From sequence record MK310184: 64,000 nt of DNA; one strand, given 5' to 3'. Source of the stretch: Phage NC-G. Each line of letters starts with the position of its first letter. Positions within the stretch are counted from its first letter, which is position 1. Under the pieces are notes generated by a model. It had not been told where the DNA came from and made no database searches. It worked only from the letters and a program-made list of their open reading frames with translations. A program made the translations under genes and the position numbers. Shown here in pieces: positions 1,301 through 21,429 of the stretch.

Positions 1301-3556
1301 ATGATTAACAAATTGGAACTTAGTGAGTTACCATTTGTTGACGGCGTACCTGATGCTCCTCAAAAGCGTATCCAATGGATACGCGAGGGTGATTGTATGT
1401 CTGCAGCAAAAACAAAATACGGCAATGAAGGTAATTTGAACGCTGCTGCTTTAGGAGTTCAGAAAAACGTAGAAGCTCTTGATGCCAACGATTTAAAAAC
1501 TGCTGATAAAGTTAATGAGCTTATAGAAAACGTTAATAATATCAATGACGCTTTAGAAATGTCAACAGATATTTCTATCATTCAACAAATAGAGAAAAAC
1601 CGTGTTGATATTGTAGACCTTAAAAAAGTCACCGAAGATACAACAGAAAAATTGGACACCTTAACAACCAATTTTGATTTCTTGCGTGAAGATGTTGGAT
1701 ATCATGACCCTTTACAAGACGGCCCATATTTAACTGTACGTGAAAATATTGTTCTTCTTAAAAATGAAATTGGTCACTATGAGAACCAGGATATAAACGG
1801 TAATCCTTTACCTCCGGGTGAAACTAGTGAAGCCACTGGTATAAAACGCCGCATCATGGATAATACCACTGAATTGGTGGACCATCGTCTTCGTATTGAT
1901 ACCCTTGAAAGAAACTATGAAGATTCTGATGTTGGGCAATTAGGTATTAAACTAAATGAAATTCGTGCCGAATTAGGACCACATTCTGATACGGTAGGTA
2001 AACAACCTGCATATACCCGAATTTCAGTATTAGAAACGGCTGCAGTTAATTTTAATACGGCTATTGACGAAATTAAGGATAATATTGATTTCTCTGGTAT
2101 GCCTATAAAGGACCGAGTAACTACTTTAGAAAGCAAAACCCTTACCTTAGAAAATTCAGTTAACGTTGATTTAAAACCTAGAGTAACTTCTATAGAAACT
2201 CAAATCGGTTCTGAGTCTGCACCAGCATCTATTAATGGTCGTTTAAGCGGGCTTCGTACTGATGTAAATGATTTAAAAACCGTTGTTGGTAATAGTTCTA
2301 GTGAAGGGCTTCGTTTCCAGGTTTCCGATATTAATCGACGCCTTGGTAGTGAAGTGTCTCCTGCTGCCGGCACGATTAATAAGCGTTTGAATGATGTTAT
2401 TATTCAAGCAAACCAATCCACCTCGTCCATCCAGGATATTCAGGTAGAAATTGGTAACAACCAATCCGGTATAAAAGGTACTTTGCTTAAGCTCACAAAT
2501 AAGGTTGACGGGACGAACCCTAACGGAGCTACTGTAGAAGAACGTGGTCTTATTAATGCGGTTACTTCTTTAGAAACCCAGATGCAAGGTAAATTAGGTG
2601 ACGCACCTTCTGATGGTAAACTCTATGCACGTCGAAATGCGGCATGGGCTGAAGTTGTTAATAATTCCACAGAAATAGAAACTGTTAAAGCCGATTTGGT
2701 TGTTACCAATGGTAAAGTGACCGCTTTAACTTCCAGAGTAGATGATAATGATACTTCTATTTCATCTCTTAATACTCACACCACTGCTCTAAATACTTCG
2801 GTTGGTGAGATTAAAGCCGATATAGTTACTATAAAGGCTAAAGATGTTGAACAGGACGGTCGTTTAACTTCTTTGGAAGAGGCTGATGTTGCTATTAACG
2901 GTAAAATTGCTGCTCTCGAAACTAAGACAGATACCACTGATGATGATGTCACAGCACTGGCTTTAGACGTTTCTTCTTTAGAGAACCAATTGACTCCTAT
3001 AAAAGCCGATATTACCAAAAACAAAGGTGATATTGTTGCCTTAACTGGTCGGGTGGCTTCTACTGAAGGTGAAATTACCGCAATTAAAGTTGATACAGCC
3101 AAAATTGCTCCTTTAACAACTAGAGTTACTACAGCAGAAGGTAAAATCACTACTTTAGAAACAGGGCTTGCCGCTGTTAAAGTCGAATCTGATAAGGTAG
3201 CAGGTATTAATACCCGCCTTGGCACTGCAGAAGATGACATCGGAACACTTGAAACGGGTTTAGCTGCTGTTAAAGTCGAATCCGATAAGGTAGCAGGTAT
3301 TAATACCCGTTTAGGTACGGTCGAAGGTAAAGTTGGTACTCTTGAAACAGGTTTGGCTGCTGTTAAAGTTGAATCTGATAAAGTTGCTGACTTAGGAACC
3401 CGTTTAACCGCCGCCGAAGGTAAAATTACAGCCTTAGAAACAGAATTATCTAAACGTCCACCGGTGGCTCCTGCCGCAGACGGACTTCCGTATGTTCTGG
3501 TTGATAATGCATGGGTATTATTATCTGATTTTGTGACTTTAAACTCAGCACCATAA
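1301..3556 (+). CDS. wac: Fibritin (whisker antigen control, neck whiskers), 751 aa, extended coiled coil with C-terminal foldon-like tail
   Basis: Heptad-rich coiled-coil segments throughout; C-terminus ...DGLPYVLVDNAWVLLSDF resembles the T4 fibritin foldon; position between 12 and 13. Confidence 0.9.
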   Translation: MINKLELSELPFVDGVPDAPQKRIQWIREGDCMSAAKTKYGNEGNLNAAALGVQKNVEALDANDLKTADKVNELIENVNNINDALEMSTDISIIQQIEKNRVDIVDLKKVTEDTTEKLDTLTTNFDFLREDVGYHDPLQDGPYLTVRENIVLLKNEIGHYENQDINGNPLPPGETSEATGIKRRIMDNTTELVDHRLRIDTLERNYEDSDVGQLGIKLNEIRAELGPHSDTVGKQPAYTRISVLETAAVNFNTAIDEIKDNIDFSGMPIKDRVTTLESKTLTLENSVNVDLKPRVTSIETQIGSESAPASINGRLSGLRTDVNDLKTVVGNSSSEGLRFQVSDINRRLGSEVSPAAGTINKRLNDVIIQANQSTSSIQDIQVEIGNNQSGIKGTLLKLTNKVDGTNPNGATVEERGLINAVTSLETQMQGKLGDAPSDGKLYARRNAAWAEVVNNSTEIETVKADLVVTNGKVTALTSRVDDNDTSISSLNTHTTALNTSVGEIKADIVTIKAKDVEQDGRLTSLEEADVAINGKIAALETKTDTTDDDVTALALDVSSLENQLTPIKADITKNKGDIVALTGRVASTEGEITAIKVDTAKIAPLTTRVTTAEGKITTLETGLAAVKVESDKVAGINTRLGTAEDDIGTLETGLAAVKVESDKVAGINTRLGTVEGKVGTLETGLAAVKVESDKVADLGTRLTAAEGKITALETELSKRPPVAPAADGLPYVLVDNAWVLLSDFVTLNSAP
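3151..3429 (+). repeat. Three near-perfect tandem 93-bp (31-codon) repeats inside wac coding sequence
   Basis: Protein segment TLETGLAAVKVESDKVAGINTRLGT... occurs three times in register; DNA units begin at about 3151, 3244 and 3337. Confidence 0.85.
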
Positions 3557-3557
3557 T

Positions 3558-3579
3558 AAAAGGGCTTCGGCCCTTTTTT
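3558..3579 (+). terminator. Rho-independent terminator after wac (GGGC-UUCG-GCCC hairpin plus T6)
   Basis: aaagggcttcggcccttttttg directly after the wac stop codon. Confidence 0.8.
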
Positions 3580-3581
3580 GC

Positions 3582-3589
3582 TATAAATA
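3582..3589 (+). promoter_or_regulatory. T4-type late promoter TATAAATA upstream of gene 13
   Basis: Exact TATAAATA about 22 nt upstream of the gene 13 ATG. Confidence 0.7.
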
Positions 3590-3610
3590 CGGTTATTAGA
3601 GGAATAAAAC

Positions 3611-4546
3611 ATGGCAAGTGAATCATATAACCCTAAGCAACTCAAGGACGCTATTCTGCGCCGCCTGGGTGCACCGATTACAAATATTGAAGTAACTACT
3701 GACCAAGTGTATGATTGTATCCAGAGGGCCTTAGAGCTCTACGGTGAATACCATTATAACGGGTATAACAAAGGTTATCAGGCTTTTTATATTGGCCATG
3801 ACGATGAAGAAAAATTCCGTAATGGTGTATTCGACCTTAAAGGACGTAATATATTTGCAGTAACACAAATTTTGAGAACTAACGTTGGTTCTTTAACATC
3901 TATGGACGGGCAAGCAACTTATCCGTGGTTTACAGATTTTGTACTAGGTTTGGCAGGTATTAATGGCGGTCTTGGGTCTTCATGTAACAGTTTTGGACCT
4001 AATGCCTTCGGCGCCGACCTTGGTTATTTTACACAATTAATGCAATATCGTTCTATGATGCAGGACCTTTTGGTTCCGCTGCCTGATTATTGGTATAATG
4101 ATGCCACTGAACAATTAAAGGTAATGGGCAACTTTGTTAAAGGCGACTTTATTGTAATTGAAGTTTATACCCGTTCATTTAATGGCGTTGATTCCATGGT
4201 TGGGAATACAGCAGGATATGGATACGCTTCTGGCGGCTGTGACGAAAATGAATGGAGCCCTGGGGCTATTTGGGACAATCCTGCACGTCGAATTTCCGGA
4301 ATGAGAGCTGGCGAAGACCTTGGACTACAAGATGGTGCTTATAATAACCGTTGGGTCAAAGATTACGCTACGGCATTAGTTAAAGAGGTCAATGGTAATA
4401 TTTTAGCCAAACACCAAGGTATGCAATTAGCAGGCGGGACCACTGTAGACGGCATTCGATTGATTGAAGAAGCTCGTTTAGAAAAAGAACGTCTTCGCGA
4501 AGAATTAGATTTGCTCGACCCACCAACACCTATTTTAATTGGATAA
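3611..4546 (+). CDS. 13: Neck protein gp13
   Basis: 311-aa ORF, size and position match T4 gp13; preceded by late promoter; tightly followed by gene 14. Confidence 0.85.
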
Positions 4547-6225: not shown

Positions 6226-8535
<2,310 letters not shown>

Positions 8536-8564
8536 ACAATAAAGCATAACCAAGAGGATTCAAA

Positions 8565-10547
8565 ATGGCTTTATTATCACCGGGCATTGAGCTCAAAGAA
8601 ACGTCCGTACAGAGTACTGTCGTTCGTAACGCAACGGGTCGTGCAGCGCTGGTTGGTAAATTCCAGTGGGGCCCTGCTTTCCAGGTAACTCAGATTACCA
8701 ATGAAGTTGAACTGGTTGATTTGTTTGGAGGTCCTAATAACGAAGTAGCAGATTACTTTATGTCTGGTATGAACTTCCTCCAGTATGGTAATGACCTTCG
8801 TACAGTTCGTGTCGTTAGTCGCGAATTTGCTAAAAACGCATCTCCTATCGCTGGTAATATCGAAACCACTATTACTACGGCTGGTTCCAACTATGCTGTA
8901 GGCGATAAAATTAATATTAAATATAACCAAACTGTAGTCGAATCTGAAGGTCGTGTGACTTCTGTAGATACAGACGGTAAAATTCTTTCTGTGTTTATTC
9001 CGTCAGCAAAAATTATTGCTTACGCACGTTCTTTAAACCAGTATCCTACCCTAGGCCCGGCTTGGACTGCTGAAGTTACTTCCGCCTCTTCGGGTGTTTC
9101 CGGTACTATTACCGTAGGTAAAATTGTTACGGATTCCGGTATTCTTTTGACCGAAGCCGAGAATAGTGAAGAAGCTATTACTTCTCTTGAATTCCAAGCG
9201 GCCCTTAAGAAATTTGCTATGCCAGGCGTAGTGGCTCTTTATCCTGGTGAAATTGGTTCTACTCTGGAAGTAGAAATCGTTTCTAAAGCAGCTTATGAAG
9301 CTGGTTCTTCTAAAATGTTGGATGTTTATCCTGGTGGCGGTACCCGTGCTTCTATTGCCAAGGCAGTATTTAATTACGGACCTCAAACAGATGACCAATA
9401 TGCTATTATCGTTCGTCGCGATGGCGCTATCGTAGAATCAGTCGTACTTTCCACCAAAGAAGGTGAAAAAGACGTTTACGGTAATAACATTTATCTTGAC
9501 GATTATTTCGCTAAAGGTACTTCTAATTACATCTATGCTACCTCGTTAAACTGGCCGAAAGGATTTAGTGGTATCATTAATCTGTCTGGTGGTATTTCCG
9601 CCAACGATAAAGTTACTGCAGGCGATTTGATGCAGGGTTGGGATTTGTTTGCCGACCGTGAAGCACTCCATATTAACCTGCTTATTGCTGGTGCTGTTGC
9701 TGGTGAAGGCGATGAAGTGGCTTCTACTGTTCAGAAACACGTTGTGAGTATTGCTGATGAACGTCAGGATTGCTTAGCATTTATTTCTCCTCCTAAAGGT
9801 CTGTTGGTTAACGTTCCACTGACTCGTGCAGTAGATAACCTTATCGACTGGCGTACCGGTGCAGGTACTTTCGATGCCAACAACATGAACATCAGTACCA
9901 CTTATGCCGCTATTGATGGTAACTATAAATATCAATACGACAAATATAACGACGTAAACCGTTGGGTACCACTGGCTGCCGATTTGGCTGGTTTGTGTGC
10001 ACGTACTGATGATGTGTCCCAGCCTTGGATGTCTCCTGCCGGTTATAACCGTGGTCAGATTCTTAACGTTCTGAAATTGGCAATTGAACCGCGTCAAGCA
10101 CAACGCGACCGCATGTACCAGGAAGCTATTAACCCGGTTGTTGGTTTTGCTGGTGGTGATGGTTTTGTATTGTTTGGTGATAAGACTGCAACTAAAGTTC
10201 CATCTCCGATGGACCATATTAACGTTCGCCGTCTGTTCAACATGCTTAAGAAAAATATCGGTGATGCCTCTAAATATAAACTGTTTGAATTGAACGATAA
10301 CTTCACTCGTTCAAGCTTCCGTATGGAAGTTTCTCAGTACTTAGATGGTATTAAGGCACTTGGTGGGATTTATGAAGGACGTGTGGTTTGTGATACTACA
10401 GTGAACACCCCTGCGGTTATCGACCGTAACGAGTTTATTGCTAATATCTATGTTAAACCTGCTCGTTCTATTAACTACATCACGTTGAACTTCGTTGCAA
10501 CGAGCACTGGTGCTGATTTTGATGAATTGATTGGACCTTTAGTATAA
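8565..10547 (+). CDS. 18: Contractile tail sheath protein gp18
   Basis: 660 aa (T4 gp18 659 aa); syntenic between 17 and 19. Confidence 0.95.
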   Translation: MALLSPGIELKETSVQSTVVRNATGRAALVGKFQWGPAFQVTQITNEVELVDLFGGPNNEVADYFMSGMNFLQYGNDLRTVRVVSREFAKNASPIAGNIETTITTAGSNYAVGDKINIKYNQTVVESEGRVTSVDTDGKILSVFIPSAKIIAYARSLNQYPTLGPAWTAEVTSASSGVSGTITVGKIVTDSGILLTEAENSEEAITSLEFQAALKKFAMPGVVALYPGEIGSTLEVEIVSKAAYEAGSSKMLDVYPGGGTRASIAKAVFNYGPQTDDQYAIIVRRDGAIVESVVLSTKEGEKDVYGNNIYLDDYFAKGTSNYIYATSLNWPKGFSGIINLSGGISANDKVTAGDLMQGWDLFADREALHINLLIAGAVAGEGDEVASTVQKHVVSIADERQDCLAFISPPKGLLVNVPLTRAVDNLIDWRTGAGTFDANNMNISTTYAAIDGNYKYQYDKYNDVNRWVPLAADLAGLCARTDDVSQPWMSPAGYNRGQILNVLKLAIEPRQAQRDRMYQEAINPVVGFAGGDGFVLFGDKTATKVPSPMDHINVRRLFNMLKKNIGDASKYKLFELNDNFTRSSFRMEVSQYLDGIKALGGIYEGRVVCDTTVNTPAVIDRNEFIANIYVKPARSINYITLNFVATSTGADFDELIGPLV

Positions 10548-15058: not shown

Positions 15059-16618
15059 ATGAAAAAGAATGCATTAGTTCAAAAATGGTCCGCTCTGCTG
15101 GAAAACGAAGCTCTTCCTGAAATCGTTGGTGCTTCTAAACAAGCTATCATCGCTAAAATTTTCGAAAACCAGGAACAAGACATCCTGACTGCTCCGGAAT
15201 ACCGTGACGAAAAAATCTCTGAAGCATTTGGTTCTTTCCTGACCGAAGCTGAAATCGGTGGTGACCACGGTTATGATGCTACCAATATCGCTGCTGGCCA
15301 GACCTCTGGTGCAGTAACTCAGATTGGGCCGGCAGTAATGGGTATGGTTCGTCGTGCTATTCCTCATCTGATTGCTTTTGATATTTGTGGTGTCCAGCCT
15401 CTGAATAACCCTACCGGTCAGGTATTTGCACTGCGTGCAGTATATGGTAAAGACCCTATCGCTGCAGGCGCTAAAGAAGCTTTCCATCCGATGTATGCTC
15501 CGAACGCTATGTTCTCTGGTCAGGGTGCTGCTGAAACTTTCGAAGCACTGGCTGCAAGCAAAGTTCTGGAAGTTGGTAAAATTTATTCTCACTTCTTCGA
15601 AGCTACCGGTTCTGCACACTTCCAGGCTGTTGAAGCTGTAACCGTTGATGCAGGCGCTACTGATGCCGCTAAACTGGATGCTGCTGTTACCGCTCTGGTT
15701 GAAGCTGGTCAGCTGGCTGAAATCGCTGAAGGTATGGCTACTTCTATCGCCGAACTTCAGGAAGGTTTCAACGGTTCTACCGATAACCCGTGGAACGAAA
15801 TGGGCTTCCGCATCGACAAACAAGTTATCGAAGCTAAATCTCGTCAGCTGAAAGCAAGCTACTCTATCGAACTGGCACAGGACCTTCGTGCAGTACACGG
15901 TATGGATGCAGATGCTGAACTGTCCGGTATCCTTGCTACCGAAATTATGCTCGAAATCAACCGTGAAGTTATCGATTGGATTAACTACTCTGCACAGGTT
16001 GGTAAATCTGGTATGACCAACACCGTTGGCGCTAAAGCTGGTGTGTTTGACTTCCAGGACCCGATTGATATCCGTGGTGCTCGTTGGGCCGGTGAGAGCT
16101 TTAAAGCCCTTCTGTTCCAGATTGATAAAGAAGCAGCCGAAATCGCTCGTCAGACCGGTCGTGGTGCTGGTAACTTCATCATCGCTTCCCGTAACGTAGT
16201 TAACGTACTGGCTGCAGTTGATACTTCTGTAAGTTATGCAGCTCAAGGTCTGGGTCAGGGTTTCAACGTTGACACAACCAAAGCAGTATTTGCCGGTGTT
16301 CTTGGTGGTAAATATCGTGTTTACATCGACCAGTATGCTCGTTCCGATTACTTCACCATCGGTTATAAAGGTTCCAACGAAATGGACGCAGGTATCTACT
16401 ATGCTCCGTACGTTGCACTGACTCCGCTGCGTGGTTCCGATCCGAAGAACTTCCAACCGGTAATGGGCTTCAAAACTCGTTACGGTATCGGTATTAACCC
16501 GTTCGCTGACCCAGCTGCTCAGGCGCCTACCAAACGTATTCAGAATGGTATGCCTGACATCGTTAACAGCCTCGGTCTGAATGGTTACTTCCGTCGCGTA
16601 TATGTTAAAGGTATCTAA
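15059..16618 (+). CDS. 23: Major capsid protein gp23
   Basis: 519 aa (T4 521 aa); strong codon bias typical of highly expressed late gene; paralogous to downstream gp24 genes. Confidence 0.97.
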   Translation: MKKNALVQKWSALLENEALPEIVGASKQAIIAKIFENQEQDILTAPEYRDEKISEAFGSFLTEAEIGGDHGYDATNIAAGQTSGAVTQIGPAVMGMVRRAIPHLIAFDICGVQPLNNPTGQVFALRAVYGKDPIAAGAKEAFHPMYAPNAMFSGQGAAETFEALAASKVLEVGKIYSHFFEATGSAHFQAVEAVTVDAGATDAAKLDAAVTALVEAGQLAEIAEGMATSIAELQEGFNGSTDNPWNEMGFRIDKQVIEAKSRQLKASYSIELAQDLRAVHGMDADAELSGILATEIMLEINREVIDWINYSAQVGKSGMTNTVGAKAGVFDFQDPIDIRGARWAGESFKALLFQIDKEAAEIARQTGRGAGNFIIASRNVVNVLAAVDTSVSYAAQGLGQGFNVDTTKAVFAGVLGGKYRVYIDQYARSDYFTIGYKGSNEMDAGIYYAPYVALTPLRGSDPKNFQPVMGFKTRYGIGINPFADPAAQAPTKRIQNGMPDIVNSLGLNGYFRRVYVKGI

Positions 16619-16633
16619 TATAAACCTTATTAT

Positions 16634-16655
16634 GGGAGACTTCGGTCTCCCATTC
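16634..16655 (+). terminator. Hairpin terminator after gene 23 (GGGAGAC-UUCG-GUCUCCC)
   Basis: gggagacttcggtctccc followed by attcttgtt just after the gene 23 stop. Confidence 0.75.
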
Positions 16656-16666
16656 TTGTTTCTATA

Positions 16667-16933
16667 CTATGCAATCTTAACACGACGGTTGATGATATCA
16701 CGGAAGTCAATACGATTTTCTTGGATTTTCAGCCAGTTACCAGATTTGTCTTTGGTATGGGTAGAGTATTCACCGTTCCACCAGAAGTCGGTAGCATAAG
16801 CCATGGCTTCGTATTTCTTAACTAGTGCATTCACTGCATTACCGTTAGGATTGGAACCATATTTTTCTACCAGGGCTTTGATGTCTTTATCAAGAGCGGA
16901 AAGAGTAGTACGAATAAAGTTTAACTTGTTCAT
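16667..16933 (-). CDS. Hypothetical early protein (88 aa) encoded antisense between genes 23 and 24
   Basis: Minus-strand ORF; start taken at the ATG 8 nt downstream of GAGGAG within the conserved early-promoter cassette; occupies the locus where T4 carries segD (from memory). Confidence 0.55.
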   Translation of the reverse strand: MNKLNFIRTTLSALDKDIKALVEKYGSNPNGNAVNALVKKYEAMAYATDFWWNGEYSTHTKDKSGNWLKIQENRIDFRDIINRRVKIA

Positions 16934-16992
16934 TTTTAATCTCCTCATGTTTTGATAGGTCTATAGTAACATGTGATAACCTTGCTGTAAAC
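16934..16992 (-). promoter_or_regulatory. Early-promoter cassette (GTTTAC -35, TACTAT -10, conserved leader with GAGGAG)
   Basis: Minus-strand reading: GTTTAC-N18-TACTATAGACCTATCAAAACATGAGGAGATTAAAAATG; same cassette recurs at least six more times in the window. Confidence 0.65.
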
Positions 16993-16998
16993 AACTTT

Positions 16999-17006
16999 TA
17001 TAAATA
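16999..17006 (+). promoter_or_regulatory. Late promoter TATAAATA upstream of gene 24
   Basis: Exact TATAAATA 29 nt upstream of the gene 24 ATG. Confidence 0.7.
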
Positions 17007-17034
17007 AACATATACCCTCAATAAGGAAAGCGCA

Positions 17035-18318
17035 ATGGCAAAGATTAACGAATTACTGCGCGAGTCAACAACTACTTCTAGCAACTCATTGGGTCGCCCT
17101 AATCTTGTTGCTTTGACCCGTGCTACAACCAAATTGATTTACCGTGATATTATTGCTGAACAACGTACTAGCCAGCCTATTGCTGCATTGTATGGTGTCA
17201 AATATCTTACTCCTGATAATGAATTTAGCTTCCAAACTGGTGCCGTTTATGGTGGTGAAGTTGGTTCTAAAGACCGTGAAACTATCCCGGAACTCACAGA
17301 TAAGGCCCAGGCTATTGCCAAGGGTGAATATTTCAAGTATCAGAACATAGTTTATAAGGCTCTTCAAGCAAGCCCACTCGCATCCACTAGCGCTACAGAA
17401 TTGACTGATGCCCTTCAAGAAGGTTTGGTGTCATTAACATGTCGTCTGGTTCCTGATGCGGCTCACACAGAGAAATTCGAAGCAGGTGATGTTGAAATTA
17501 GTAATGCAGTATTCCAGGTTAATAAATGGAACGCACCTGTTAAGTCTCGTAAACTTAAAACCGCTTTGACTGTAGAACTAGCCCAAGACATGGAATCCAA
17601 TGGCTTCGACGCCCCTGCGTTCTTAGAAGACCTTTTAGCCACTGTAATGGCTGATGAAATCAATAAAGACGTACTACAATCCTTGATTACCGTATCCAAA
17701 CGCTATAAAGTTACTGGTGTATCTGATAATGGTATTATTGATTTGACTTATGATAGTGCTCCGGAATCTGCACGTAAACTTTATGAAATTGTTTGTGAGA
17801 TGAATTCTGAAATCCAGAAAACTACTTCTTATTCTGGTACGTTTGTTGTGGCTTCAAGTCGTGTAGCTGCAATGCTTGCGGGTTCAGGCTGGTTAAAACA
17901 TAAACCTGAAGATAATAATTGGCTCCCAGAAACTGCCTATGGTTATTTGTTGAATGGATTACCTCTGTTCTGTGACGTTAACAGCCCGTTGGATTATGTT
18001 ATCGTCGGTGTTAAAGAGAACTATGGTGGTAATGAAGTTGTCGGTTCTATTTTCTATGCCCCGTACACAGAAGGCCTGGATTTAGACGACCAAGAACACG
18101 TTGGTGCTTATAAGGTTATTGTCGACCCGGATTCATTACAGCCTTCTATTTCTCTGATGGTTCGTTATGCACTGTCCGCTAACCCGTACACCGTAGCTAA
18201 AGACGATAAAGAAGCTCGTGTTATAGATGCAACCAATATGGATTTAATGGCTGGACAGAGTAATATGTCTTATCTGCTTGGTGTTAAACTTCCAGCAATT
18301 ATTTACGAGGCTGATTAA
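17035..18318 (+). CDS. 24: Capsid vertex protein gp24 (copy 1)
   Basis: 427 aa, same length as T4 gp24; N-terminus MAKINELLRESTTT... and overall gp23/gp24 fold-family similarity. Confidence 0.92.
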   Translation: MAKINELLRESTTTSSNSLGRPNLVALTRATTKLIYRDIIAEQRTSQPIAALYGVKYLTPDNEFSFQTGAVYGGEVGSKDRETIPELTDKAQAIAKGEYFKYQNIVYKALQASPLASTSATELTDALQEGLVSLTCRLVPDAAHTEKFEAGDVEISNAVFQVNKWNAPVKSRKLKTALTVELAQDMESNGFDAPAFLEDLLATVMADEINKDVLQSLITVSKRYKVTGVSDNGIIDLTYDSAPESARKLYEIVCEMNSEIQKTTSYSGTFVVASSRVAAMLAGSGWLKHKPEDNNWLPETAYGYLLNGLPLFCDVNSPLDYVIVGVKENYGGNEVVGSIFYAPYTEGLDLDDQEHVGAYKVIVDPDSLQPSISLMVRYALSANPYTVAKDDKEARVIDATNMDLMAGQSNMSYLLGVKLPAIIYEAD

Positions 18319-19598
18319 TGTCTAAGATTATAGACCTAATTAAAGAATCCACATTGACGGCTGCCAACTCGGTTGGCCGTCCTGCTCTTCTTTCATACAC
18401 CCAAGCAACTAATAAACGAATCTTTAAAGCCCTAGTTGCTGAACAAAAAACAAGCCAACCTGTTGCCGCTCTGTACGGGGTTCGTGTACTTAATCCCGAC
18501 GACAAAATGACTTATCTTGGTGGTGCTACATTTGCAGGCCAGATTGGTATGTCGGAACGTGAAAATATTCCTGAATTTACCGATTCGTCTACAGCTTATG
18601 CAGCCGGAGATATGTTCCAGTTTGAAAGTGTAGTGTTTAAAGTTCTAGAAGCATCCCCTTTCGCCGGAACCACAGAAACCGACCTCGGTGAAGTTATTTC
18701 TGAAGCAGTGGCCGCTGGACATATTCGTATGGTATCAGATGCTGCTATTACTTCTAAATTTGAACAAGGCCATCCTGAAATTGCTGAAGCAGGCTTCCGT
18801 ATTGACAAATGGCAATCTGAAGTTAAATCACGTAAACTGAAAACTTCATTGACAGTCGAATTGGCCCAAGACCTAGAATCAAACGGGTTTAATGCTCCTA
18901 ATTTCGTTGAAAATCTGCTAGGTATTCAAATGGCGGAAGAAATTAATAAGGACGTATTACAGTCATTAATTACGGTGAGTTCTCGTTTTAAAGTCCAGGG
19001 TGTTTCTGAAAAGGGTGTATTAGACCTTACTAACCCGCGTTACGATAATGCCCAGGACCGTGCTCGTACATTATATTATTACATGTGTGAGATGAACTCT
19101 GCCGTCCAACGTCAAACTTCTTTCGCCGGGACTTATGCAGTAGCTAGTTCTCGTTGTGCTGCTATTCTCGCCGCTTCCGGTTGGGTTGAGAAAAAGGAAG
19201 ACCAAGACGAACTGGCTTATGGTGTATTAAAGAATGGTCTGCCTCTTTATGCCGATATGAATAGTCCATGTGATTATGTTATTGTTGGTGTAAATGCTCA
19301 GATGGGTGAAGGACAGACGGTCGCATCTTTATATTATGCGCCTTATACGGAAGGTTTGGATGTGGTTGATGAAGAAGGTGATACTTCAGTAGGTGAATTT
19401 AAGGTTATTGTTGACCCGGAAAGCTTACAACCTACAGTAGCATTGCTTGCTCGTTATGCATTGACTGCAAACCCTTATACCGTCGCTAAGGACGATAAAG
19501 AAGCCCGCATTATTGATGGCTCTGATATGGACAAAATGGCTAACCAAAGCCAGTTGAGTTCTTATCTTGGTGTTAAACTTCCACCACTAGAAAAATAA
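18318..19598 (+). CDS. Capsid vertex protein gp24 paralog (copy 2, diverged)
   Basis: 426 aa, alignable along its full length with copy 1 (shared blocks KSRKLKT.LTVELAQD.ESNGF.AP.F.E.LL, INKDVLQSLITVS, YAPYTEGLD, PYTVAKDDKEAR); ATGA-coupled to copy 1. Confidence 0.88.
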   Translation: MSKIIDLIKESTLTAANSVGRPALLSYTQATNKRIFKALVAEQKTSQPVAALYGVRVLNPDDKMTYLGGATFAGQIGMSERENIPEFTDSSTAYAAGDMFQFESVVFKVLEASPFAGTTETDLGEVISEAVAAGHIRMVSDAAITSKFEQGHPEIAEAGFRIDKWQSEVKSRKLKTSLTVELAQDLESNGFNAPNFVENLLGIQMAEEINKDVLQSLITVSSRFKVQGVSEKGVLDLTNPRYDNAQDRARTLYYYMCEMNSAVQRQTSFAGTYAVASSRCAAILAASGWVEKKEDQDELAYGVLKNGLPLYADMNSPCDYVIVGVNAQMGEGQTVASLYYAPYTEGLDVVDEEGDTSVGEFKVIVDPESLQPTVALLARYALTANPYTVAKDDKEARIIDGSDMDKMANQSQLSSYLGVKLPPLEK

Positions 19599-19622
19599 AA
19601 GGGACCGTAAGGTCCCTTTATT
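19599..19622. terminator. Bidirectional hairpin terminator between gp24 paralog (+) and rnlB (-)
   Basis: aaagggaccgtaaggtcccttta perfect palindromic hairpin flanked by A-run and T-run. Confidence 0.75.
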
Positions 19623-19624
19623 GT

Positions 19625-20632
19625 TTATTTGGATACTAATTCAATCCATACGGCTCTTAAGGTATCTTTTACACACTCAACGAGCTGCTTTTTAACTTCA
19701 ACAGGGTTTTCTGCATCGGTTAATTCTAATTCTTCACGGGCTGCCTCTTCCAAAATATCTTGGACCGTTAGTCCCATTACCTTTCCGAAATCTTTAGGTG
19801 ATACTTCACCAATCTTACTGATAACGTTGTTAATACGGTTAACAGTCACATAATCAGTGAATTGCCACATCAAGTCCATATCGTCTTGGGACAATACCAC
19901 TGGAACCTTAATAGGCTTGTCAGACTTTTTCTTCTCGCTGAATTTAGAGTTCTTACATTTAATAGCTACACGATTTCCGTTTGGAAGCCAGAGTGGGTAG
20001 CAAGGTTTTAATACATACCCTTCAGCCGTAAATACTTCGCCTTTTGCTTCAGACTTCCATACACGGGCATTAGCTTCAATTAACCCGACATTATCTACCA
20101 TAAAATTATAATCTTGGACAACAGAATCTAAATCATTTGGCAATTTAATAAGGTCTTCAAATTTACCACGGCCTAAAAGTGGGGCAACTTTAAATCGAAA
20201 TGTCTTACAGAATGATTCCAACATATAATCATCGACATAAGTCACATCGCCACTTTCTGTGGTAACAATAATGTCAAATACATAAAAATCTTTATCACCA
20301 TAATCAACATTCTTCTGAATGCCAGGCCCGGCTAGTTCACCAAAAACTTGATAAGATACAGCAGCTGAAGTTTCCATGATATCTTGTACTGCTTTAATGG
20401 AATCAGCATAATTCTTTAAAACAATTTCATAACCAAAGAAATCTTCGGCTGGGAGAATTGGGCCAGTTCGCTTGGCACATGTGACTGCGCCACGTTCTAT
20501 GATTAAACTAAAGTTGGTTCCATGAATCTTCTCACGTGCTACCCATTCACCACCAGTCAAACCATGGATACGGAGTTTTTCGATAAACTTACTGTTGTAG
20601 TGGTTTTCGAGACTGCTATATTTCTTAAACAT
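19625..20632 (-). CDS. rnlB: RNA ligase 2 (Rnl2)
   Basis: N-terminus [20 protein letters not shown]... and nucleotidyltransferase motif I KIHGTN match T4 Rnl2; start set at the M aligning with T4 Rnl2 start. Confidence 0.93.
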
Positions 20633-20633
20633 A

Positions 20634-21002
20634 TTATTTGCTTCCATAATCAATTTTAACTAATTTACCTTTAAGGTAACCATAATTTGAAGGTTTACAA
20701 TCAGACATATACATGCTTTCTACTAAGGTTTGGTGCCTTGCATGATGTATTTCTGTTTTCCATAATCCGATATTCGTAACTTCTTGGGCCCTAGGCATAA
20801 CTATAACAAACCCTAACCAAGATTTCCATATAACAGGACACAAATACGGGTCCTTCAATGATGAGAATTCGTGTTCCGTTATATTGCAATAGAGCCCGGT
20901 TAAAAACAGTTTCCAACTATAGAAGCTTGGTATCTTAATGGCGTATCGTTTCGTCAGGAAGACCTGCCGGGTTGCACCATTTCTTTTTCTGATAAATGGC
21001 AT
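20634..21002 (-). CDS. Hypothetical protein (24.2-position)
   Basis: 122-aa ORF translationally abutting rnlB; no recognisable motif. Confidence 0.5.
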
Positions 21003-21116: not shown

Positions 21117-21326
21117 TTACTTTGAACTAGAACGCGCTTTGCGCCGAACCTTATTGATTAGACGTTTACGATATACCACTTTCTCTTTTGTTTTAAATTT
21201 CTCTTTGGCTTGTTCCACATCAACCCATGCTTTGGCCATATCCTTAGCGGTCCCGCCCATTTTTTTAGCAATTTCTATAAAATTCAAACCAGATTCGTGT
21301 AAAAAATGTACTTTAACCTTATCCAT
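21117..21326 (-). CDS. Small helix-turn-helix protein with basic C-terminal tail (69 aa from second ATG)
   Basis: LNFIEIAKKMGGTAKDMAKAW reads as a classic HTH; C-terminus RKRLINKVRRKARSSSK is strongly basic. Confidence 0.5.
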   Translation of the reverse strand: MDKVKVHFLHESGLNFIEIAKKMGGTAKDMAKAWVDVEQAKEKFKTKEKVVYRKRLINKVRRKARSSSK

Positions 21327-21429
21327 AACAATTCTCTCGTTGAGTTGGTAAACCCATCTTAACATAGGATTTTTAACTTGTAAACAGGAATTTTGTACTT
21401 TAATGCAAAATGGGCCTTGCGGCCCATAA

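Follow-up and report, generated by a model that had tools for sequence, protein, structure and literature searches.

Why would a T4-like phage carry two genes for what looks like the same capsid vertex protein? T4 is the reference model of prolate capsid assembly, and its gp24 has been described as a single specialised penton protein. In a 64,000-nucleotide (nt) stretch of DNA from Phage NC-G (sequence record MK310184), which was analysed as a whole and is called the window here, two adjacent genes that we refer to as 24A and 24B both encode members of the gp24 family. The explanation that we favour, with moderate confidence, is that the two genes form a conserved late operon made up of a late promoter, 24A, 24B and a terminator, and that both encode proteins of the gp24 capsid vertex (penton) family that are not redundant with each other.

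Two gp24-family genes in tandem

Both genes lie on the plus strand, 24A at 17035..18318 (427 amino acids, aa) and 24B at 18318..19598 (426 aa), and they are joined by a TAATG at 18316-18320 in which the last A of the 24A TAA stop codon is also the first A of the 24B ATG. The first-pass annotation of this locus had described two full-length, translationally coupled genes of the gp23/gp24 family, and our analysis reproduced its coordinates and protein lengths exactly. Both products match the entire profile of Pfam family PF07068 (Gp23 family) at ~1e-97, a family to which gp23 of the window also belongs, and both fall into phrog_138; no NCBIfam model matches either protein. Searches against solved structures identified T4 gp24 (PDB 1YUE) from residue 1 to ~424 with E = 4e-198 for 24A and E = 6e-152 for 24B, and the T4 gp23 chains were matched by both at only ~1e-11. 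The two proteins also fit the size class of gp24 (~425 aa) and are without the 65-residue N-terminal propeptide region of gp23, while gp23 of the window (15059..16618) aligns to 24A in its C-terminal half only, at 27% identity.

Pairwise alignment bore out the earlier description of the second copy as homologous along its whole length yet diverged, with 57% identity and 77% positives between 24A and 24B over 428 columns (BLASTP, E = 0). Identity to T4 gp24 is 70.2% for 24A versus 57.9% for 24B, and 24A groups with the T4-type proteins at 100% bootstrap in the tree described below, which agrees with the proposal that the first copy is the canonical gp24. The fold of 24A and 24B is not in doubt, since they are 57-70% identical to a protein whose structure has been solved. 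By homology 24B is clearly a member of the gp24 family, yet one that appears to be under altered constraints.

Distribution and existing annotation of the pair

The gene order in the window, 20-67-68-21-22-23-(orf)-24A-24B-rnlB-hoc-inh-uvsW, is that of the late head-gene cluster. A megablast search of phage records with the segment 16600-19700 returned full-length matches of up to 95% DNA identity to JS10, Esco_phi_B-01 and Ec2-ASingh and of 89% to JS98, and gp23 of JS98 is 100% identical to that of the window. The locus is the head-gene region of a Dhakavirus (JS98-type). In the records of JS98, JS10 and IME08 the two genes are named 24a/24b, and in those of VR5 and VR26 they appear as "capsid vertex protein I/II". 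These are the same locus, with the order 23, a small reverse open reading frame (ORF), 24A, 24B and rnlB, and the window differs from the Dhakavirus pairs only at the level of alleles. The pair as a sequence feature is already known, annotated and ordinary in this phage group. The novelty that the first-pass annotation had implied does not hold, and its finding in a genome scan amounts to the re-discovery of an annotated feature. What our comparisons appear to add, from the sequences, is that 24B falls outside the clade of 24A and T4 gp24, that the operon layout is conserved, that 24B alone has changed at otherwise invariant sites and that its divergence is concentrated at what would be a contact made within the pentamer.

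The tandem of an A-type gene followed by a B-type gene was found in six annotated genomes from five genera of the Tevenvirinae: Dhakavirus (JS98 and VR5), Gaprivervirus (VR26), Gelderlandvirus (Salmonella phage Melville), Kanagawavirus (Enterobacter phage IME523) and Marfavirus (Klebsiella phage Kpn BM7). A single gp24 is encoded in Tequatrovirus (T2, T4), Mosigvirus, Moonvirus, Jiaodavirus, Winklervirus, Tegunavirus and Mosugukvirus as well as in Acinetobacter phage PhT2, Proteus phage SJ_PmiM and Aeromonas phage 44RR2.8t. In T4 itself the order is 23, segD, 24, rnlB, with gene 24 between segD and rnlB and in a single copy, as the first-pass annotation had stated. Among 2,351 matching phage records in a tblastn search, 91 had at least 80% identity to 24B and 91 had at least 80% identity to 24A. 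The contrast with a single-copy T4 on which the earlier interest in the second gene rested is real, but the second gene is present in those 91 records and in five genera.

Wherever we found a B-type gene, an A-type gene preceded it. All 16 IMG/VR loci with a B-type gene (≥78% identity) had an A-type gene directly upstream, and 24A lies upstream of 24B in each of the seven two-copy genomes whose orthologs were compared for the junction, promoter, motif and tree counts given here; a B-type gene alone occurred in none of these 16 loci or seven genomes. The window fits this conserved 24A-24B cassette, with its 24A in the A clade (100%), its 24B in the B clade (100%) and TAATG at the junction. The JS98 and VR7 genome papers are said to note the duplication of gene 24. 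In the collection of full-text papers that was searched we found none that analyses the 24a/24b pair and no virion proteomics or structure of a two-copy phage; no duplication is mentioned by Petrov et al. 2010, and T4 gp24 was the only gp24 structure returned by a search of the PDB.

The record of Enterobacter phage IME523 (MN087708) labels a gene in the usual position of hoc (7870-9275, minus strand) as "capsid vertex protein gp24" and its true 24A as "major capsid protein". Both labels are probably annotation errors.

Descent and selection

We placed the two proteins in a tree of 25 gp24 sequences that was built by neighbour joining and bootstrapped 300 times, with Aeromonas phage 44RR2.8t as the root. 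The seven A proteins form one clade and the seven B proteins another, each with 100% bootstrap support. A further 100% supports a group that joins the A proteins to those of T4, Mosigvirus, Moonvirus, PM2 and SP18 and leaves out B, and monophyly of A plus B was recovered in 0 of 300 bootstraps. The proteins of Jiaodavirus and Tegunavirus are nearest to 24B, with weak support (38%). On this topology 24A is the ortholog of T4 gp24, and 24B, because it falls outside the A/T4 clade, would be an old paralog or an acquired copy as opposed to a recent duplicate of 24A. To describe the pair as a diverged tandem duplicate therefore needs qualifying, as 24B is not a recent copy of 24A.

Three-point distances calculated with four different outgroups likewise place the A/B node deeper than the A/T2 node, with branches from the A/B node of ~0.26-0.30 to A and 0.35-0.38 to B and with the A/T2 split at ~0.18-0.20. 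Moreover, 24B keeps the outgroup state at some sites where the A/T4 clade is derived, for example E at T4 position 208 and a gap at position 298. These retained states, together with the absence of A plus B monophyly, rule out a recent duplication within the lineage. Nor is there support for a burst of faster evolution as the only reason why 24B has diverged, as its branch is only ~1.2-1.5 times that of 24A, though the 10 invariant-site changes described below show some shift in constraint. The branching order within the A clade agrees with that within the B clade, and therefore both genes have been inherited together. An old duplication that was later lost in most lineages is a possible history of 24B, and acquisition from outside the A/T4 clade, with fixation in tandem in the ancestor of the cassette, is the more parsimonious one.

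Neither gene is decaying, as the first-pass annotation had argued from intact frames and codon usage. The ratio of nonsynonymous to synonymous substitution rates (dN/dS) among orthologs is 0.04-0.09 for 24A and 0.02-0.09 for 24B, and values below 0.1 rule out a pseudogene. To judge from these ratios, both genes are functional and under strong purifying selection. The same calculation made between the two copies, which had been proposed as a check, gave a synonymous divergence (dS) of ~1.9, which is saturated. Nucleotide identity between 24A and 24B is 62% in all seven genomes, and we detected no gene conversion tract between them, with no 30-codon window exceeding 83% identity.

A comparison of the region 15059-20653 with JS98 gave 98-100% DNA identity from gene 23 to ~17,650, inside 24A, and 76-88% over the remainder of 24A and all of 24B, with a low of 65% in rnlB. 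This drop marks a recombination breakpoint at ~17,650, within 24A, from which point the window carries another Dhakavirus allele than JS98. Accordingly, dS relative to JS98 is 0.29 for 24A and 1.13 for 24B. A and B alleles are reshuffled among Dhakaviruses.

Exchange at this locus appears to have taken place in other genera too. Shigella phage SP18 (Gaprivervirus, GQ981382) has a gp23 that is 98% identical to that of the window and one gene 24 (2501-3781), whose product is 69% identical to 24A and 55% to 24B and clusters with gp24 of Pectobacterium phage PM2 (95% bootstrap). It looks as if the whole A-B cassette was replaced in SP18 by a foreign single gp24. Similarly, gp23 of Melville is 91.9% identical to gp23 of Moonvirus KM16; KM16 has a single T4-type gp24 (84% identical to that of T2), and the A-B pair is found in Melville. 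The two genes thus tell conflicting histories, and horizontal movement of the gene 24 module, independent of gene 23, appears to have occurred.

Signals of a two-gene late operon

Upstream of 24A, at 16999..17006 on the plus strand, lies the T4-type late promoter motif TATAAATA, which is the established T4 late promoter consensus; it ends 29 nt 5' of the 24A start codon and is the only copy ahead of or within the pair. The motif occurs 17 times in the window against 6.6 expected, with 13 of the 17 matches on the plus strand, and in all seven two-copy genomes a copy starts 33-36 nt 5' of 24A. No copy was found inside 24A in any of the seven genomes, nor between 24A and 24B in the window. As 24B has no promoter motif of its own, it would be read from the 24A transcript. 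A terminator-like hairpin after gene 23 (16632..16653, plus strand), with a 9-base-pair stem that includes 5 G-C pairs and is followed by a T-rich tail, is predicted to separate the gene 23 transcript from the gene 24 operon. At the other end, a G+C-rich hairpin at 19598..19619 has a terminator score on both strands and is common to the 24A-24B operon and the convergent rnlB; a G+C-rich inverted repeat 3' of 24B is found in 7/7 two-copy genomes.

The junction between the two genes is equally constant. The distance from the 24A stop to the 24B start is -4 to +1 nt in all seven genomes, and a Shine-Dalgarno sequence for 24B, GAGG at 18307..18310 on the plus strand, lies 7 nt before the 24B ATG and within the last codons of 24A (Y-E-A). 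The same GAGG, encoded by the C-terminal Y-E-A codons of 24A, is present in six of the seven genomes. Because the promoter, the junction gap and the hairpin are kept across the seven genomes, we interpret 24A-24B as a conserved bicistronic late operon. The C-termini of single-copy gp24 proteins differ from the Tyr-Glu-Ala of 24A, with T4 gp24 ending in IIIDE. The C-terminus of 24A seems to be constrained at the junction (18301-18318 in the window) as a ribosome-binding site for 24B.

Altered sites and the pentamer contact

Each protein begins with a predicted 10-residue propeptide, MAKINELLRE in 24A (17035..17064, plus strand), which ends in an L-x-E motif and is followed by STTT, and MSKIIDLIKE in 24B (18318..18347, plus strand), which ends in I-x-E and is followed by STLT. 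The L/I-x-E motif and the subsequent S-T are kept in 7/7 A and 7/7 B orthologs, with a B propeptide of 9 residues in Kpn BM7. In T4, the prohead protease gp21 removes the 10 N-terminal residues of gp24 (PMC9958956, PMC9546572), and in 5VF3 the first residue of the mature T4 protein aligns with position 11 of 24A and 24B. We infer that gp21 cleaves both 24A and 24B in this phage. The retention of the motif in every A and B ortholog suggests that both proteins may be in the prohead while gp21 is active.

The constraints on the two proteins appear to differ at sites that are otherwise fixed in the family. Across 100 alignment columns that are invariant in 11 single-copy gp24 proteins ranging from T4 to Aeromonas 44RR2.8t, the A clade has no fixed changes and five sporadic ones. 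The B clade leaves 83 columns untouched, with 7 partial and 10 fixed changes (L27Y, L34R, K56R, Y57V, T204I/V, Y267F, E335Q, G338A, F341Y and K422P). The difference in fixed changes, 0 in A versus 10 in B, is significant (Fisher p = 0.0015). A 3-residue insertion near position 355 also tells the two proteins apart.

Identity by segment, in T4 numbering, varies along the proteins. Over aa 22-29, A is 100% identical to the T4 group and B is 45% identical both to the T4 group and to A. In I-domain linker 1 (aa 60-81) the values are 65% for A and 43% for B against the T4 group and 36% for A against B; for I-domain linker 2 (aa 143-154) they are 58%, 52% and 54%, and for the C-terminal third (aa 360-427) 75%, 74% and 72%, in the same order. 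Within the B clade itself identity is 61-91% per segment, about as conserved as the A clade. At the 10 otherwise invariant positions 24B is unlike T4 gp24 and every other single-copy gp24 compared, and its divergence is also marked in aa 22-29 and I-domain linker 1. Within a pentamer of the expanded T4 head, aa 26-29 of gp24* pair in a parallel beta arrangement with an I-domain linker that belongs to the adjoining subunit (PMC9546572). Contacts inside the capsomer stabilise linker 1, and those made to the capsomers around it stabilise linker 2 (PMC9546572). Mapped onto this description, 24B would have diverged most on both sides of a within-pentamer contact, with the elements that touch gp23 hexamers comparatively preserved. 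This concentration of divergence in aa 22-29 and linker 1 suggests that 24B may prefer to assemble with itself.

Possible roles of the second protein

In the reading that we favour, 24A would act as the canonical vertex protein, of the type that is the sole one elsewhere. The 24B lineage would have split off before the A and T4-type lineages parted, and since then 24B would have been inherited with 24A, downstream of it and tightly coupled to it in translation, in at least five genera of the Tevenvirinae. Both proteins would enter the prohead, be trimmed by gp21 and end in the shell. That 24B is a functional and specialised gp24-type capsid protein is the part of this reading we consider likely: its co-retention under selection, its absence as a lone gene, its altered invariant sites, the shared promoter and coupling and the kept propeptide motif argue for a protein that is specialised, non-redundant and dependent on 24A. 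Since 24B diverges in aa 22-29 and linker 1, which pair between subunits of the T4 pentamer, it would most likely form homopentamers at a subset of the 11 non-portal vertices instead of mixing freely with 24A, and the co-divergence of the N-arm segment (aa 22-29) and I-linker 1 would keep two pentamer types unmixed. The proposal that 24A and 24B are separate pentons at different vertices is, for all that, a tentative one. More tentative still is the idea that the two kinds of penton occupy geometrically non-equivalent vertices, for example with one kind at the single apical vertex, or at five vertices that form a ring, and the second kind at the remaining vertices.

Several observations weigh against this reading. 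SP18, with its single PM2-like gp24 beside a gp23 98% identical to that of the window, indicates that a lattice of the window type of gp23 can be closed by one gp24 type without a strict need for B. All 55 gp24 subunits of T4, at every vertex, have closely similar conformations (PMC9546572), so geometry alone requires no two penton types. The clustering of the fixed 24B changes in aa 22-81 is not significant (4/10 versus 20/100 sites, p = 0.11), which leaves the interface argument only suggestive. The tree is a neighbour-joining one of 25 sequences, out of roughly 1,400 full-length homologs, in which the exact position of 24B has 38% bootstrap support. Finally, our literature and PDB searches turned up no proteomics, knockout or structure of 24B.

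Could 24B instead be an interchangeable or condition-dependent spare, such that any vertex takes either protein? It might serve better under some conditions (temperature, pH, osmotic stress or a particular host), or it might let the phage escape a host factor that targets one type of gp24. No segment of gp24 is missing along the full length of 24B, which has the propeptide motif, the I domain, the two linkers and the C-terminus, and gp24 types appear to be exchangeable across gp23 backgrounds, as in SP18 and in Melville, whose gp23 is 92% identical to that of KM16 with its single T4-type gp24. T4 gp24 also strongly affects the stability of the capsid to acid, heat and proteases (PMC10580926), and a second variant could plausibly tune it. 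However, 24B is never the sole vertex gene, with 24A upstream in 16/16 IMG/VR loci and 7/7 genomes. The 10 fixed changes in 24B at sites invariant in sole gp24 proteins, against none in 24A, suggest that 24B is not constrained as a stand-alone vertex protein, and one promoter with translational coupling leaves no condition-specific expression at the level of transcription. We regard a spare as rather unlikely.

Less probable again is that 24B is a gp24-derived assembly factor, a transient component of the prohead or a decoy that is not part of finished heads, for instance one that holds a place at vertices or close to the portal while the prohead assembles, or one that modulates gp21 activation. 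A regulatory variant is conceivable, given that the gp21 protease of T4 is believed to be activated when gp24 attaches to the vertices of the prohead (PMC9958956), and both the changes in 24B at otherwise invariant positions and the lack of proteomic evidence for 24B in virions in our literature search would fit such a role. Yet purifying selection acts along the whole of 24B, whose conservation within its clade is similar to that of 24A, and it retains linker 2, which contacts neighbouring gp23 capsomers (52% identity to the T4 group), as well as the C-terminal third (74%), as expected of a lattice protein. The equal length and tandem position of the two genes might, in turn, recall a recent tandem duplicate close to loss, or an artefact of annotation or assembly. 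We find this very hard to credit in view of the saturated dS of ~1.9, the 62% nucleotide identity, the ortholog dN/dS below 0.1, the intact pair in independently sequenced genomes of five genera and the recovery of A plus B monophyly in 0 of 300 bootstraps.

Beyond the JS98-type pairs, two T4 systems can be compared with 24A and 24B. T4 gp24 (1YUE; in situ 5VF3, 7VS5 and 8GMO) resembles the two proteins in size, carries the 10-residue propeptide motif and is likewise encoded behind a late promoter between 23 and rnlB, and it differs in being the product of one gene 24 and not two. The T4 pair of gp23 and gp24 follows the same logic, as a capsid paralog encoded beside its relative in the late head operon has a specialised position in the lattice (PMC9958956). 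However, gp23 and gp24 share only ~21-27% identity, and their separate positions, in hexamers versus pentamers, are proven (PMC9958956), whereas 24A and 24B are 57% identical and a difference in position between them is hypothetical.

Neighbouring open reading frames

The slot between genes 23 and 24A in the window holds a 93-aa ORF (16667-16948, minus strand) that belongs to phrog_6003, for which no function is assigned, and that is kept in JS98, VR5, SP18 and RB69-type phages. In T4 and IME08 the slot between 23 and 24 is occupied by the homing endonuclease gene segD, and in IME341 by another homing endonuclease. On the far side of rnlB, between that gene and an 82-aa ORF at 21117-21365, lies a 122-aa ORF (20634-21002, minus strand) of phrog_4301; the JS98 record has no gene annotated in the corresponding gap, which is shorter. 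It shares 20 nt with the beginning of the longest ORF for rnlB; the latter opens with TTG, a start that is probably placed too far upstream.

Implications for T4-like capsids

With a second gp24-type gene in five genera, the T4 picture of one vertex protein is unfit for a sizeable group of its relatives. Several of these genera include phages that are considered for therapy, such as JS98, JS10 and the S16-like Salmonella phages. If 24B does mark particular vertices, it would be relevant to the way in which a prolate shell distinguishes one vertex from another and to how the identity of a pentamer is kept, and the engineering of capsid display could gain a second site that is possibly position-specific. 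If two kinds of penton indeed sat at non-equivalent vertices, no T4-like capsid before these would have had vertex proteins tied to a position, the portal apart.

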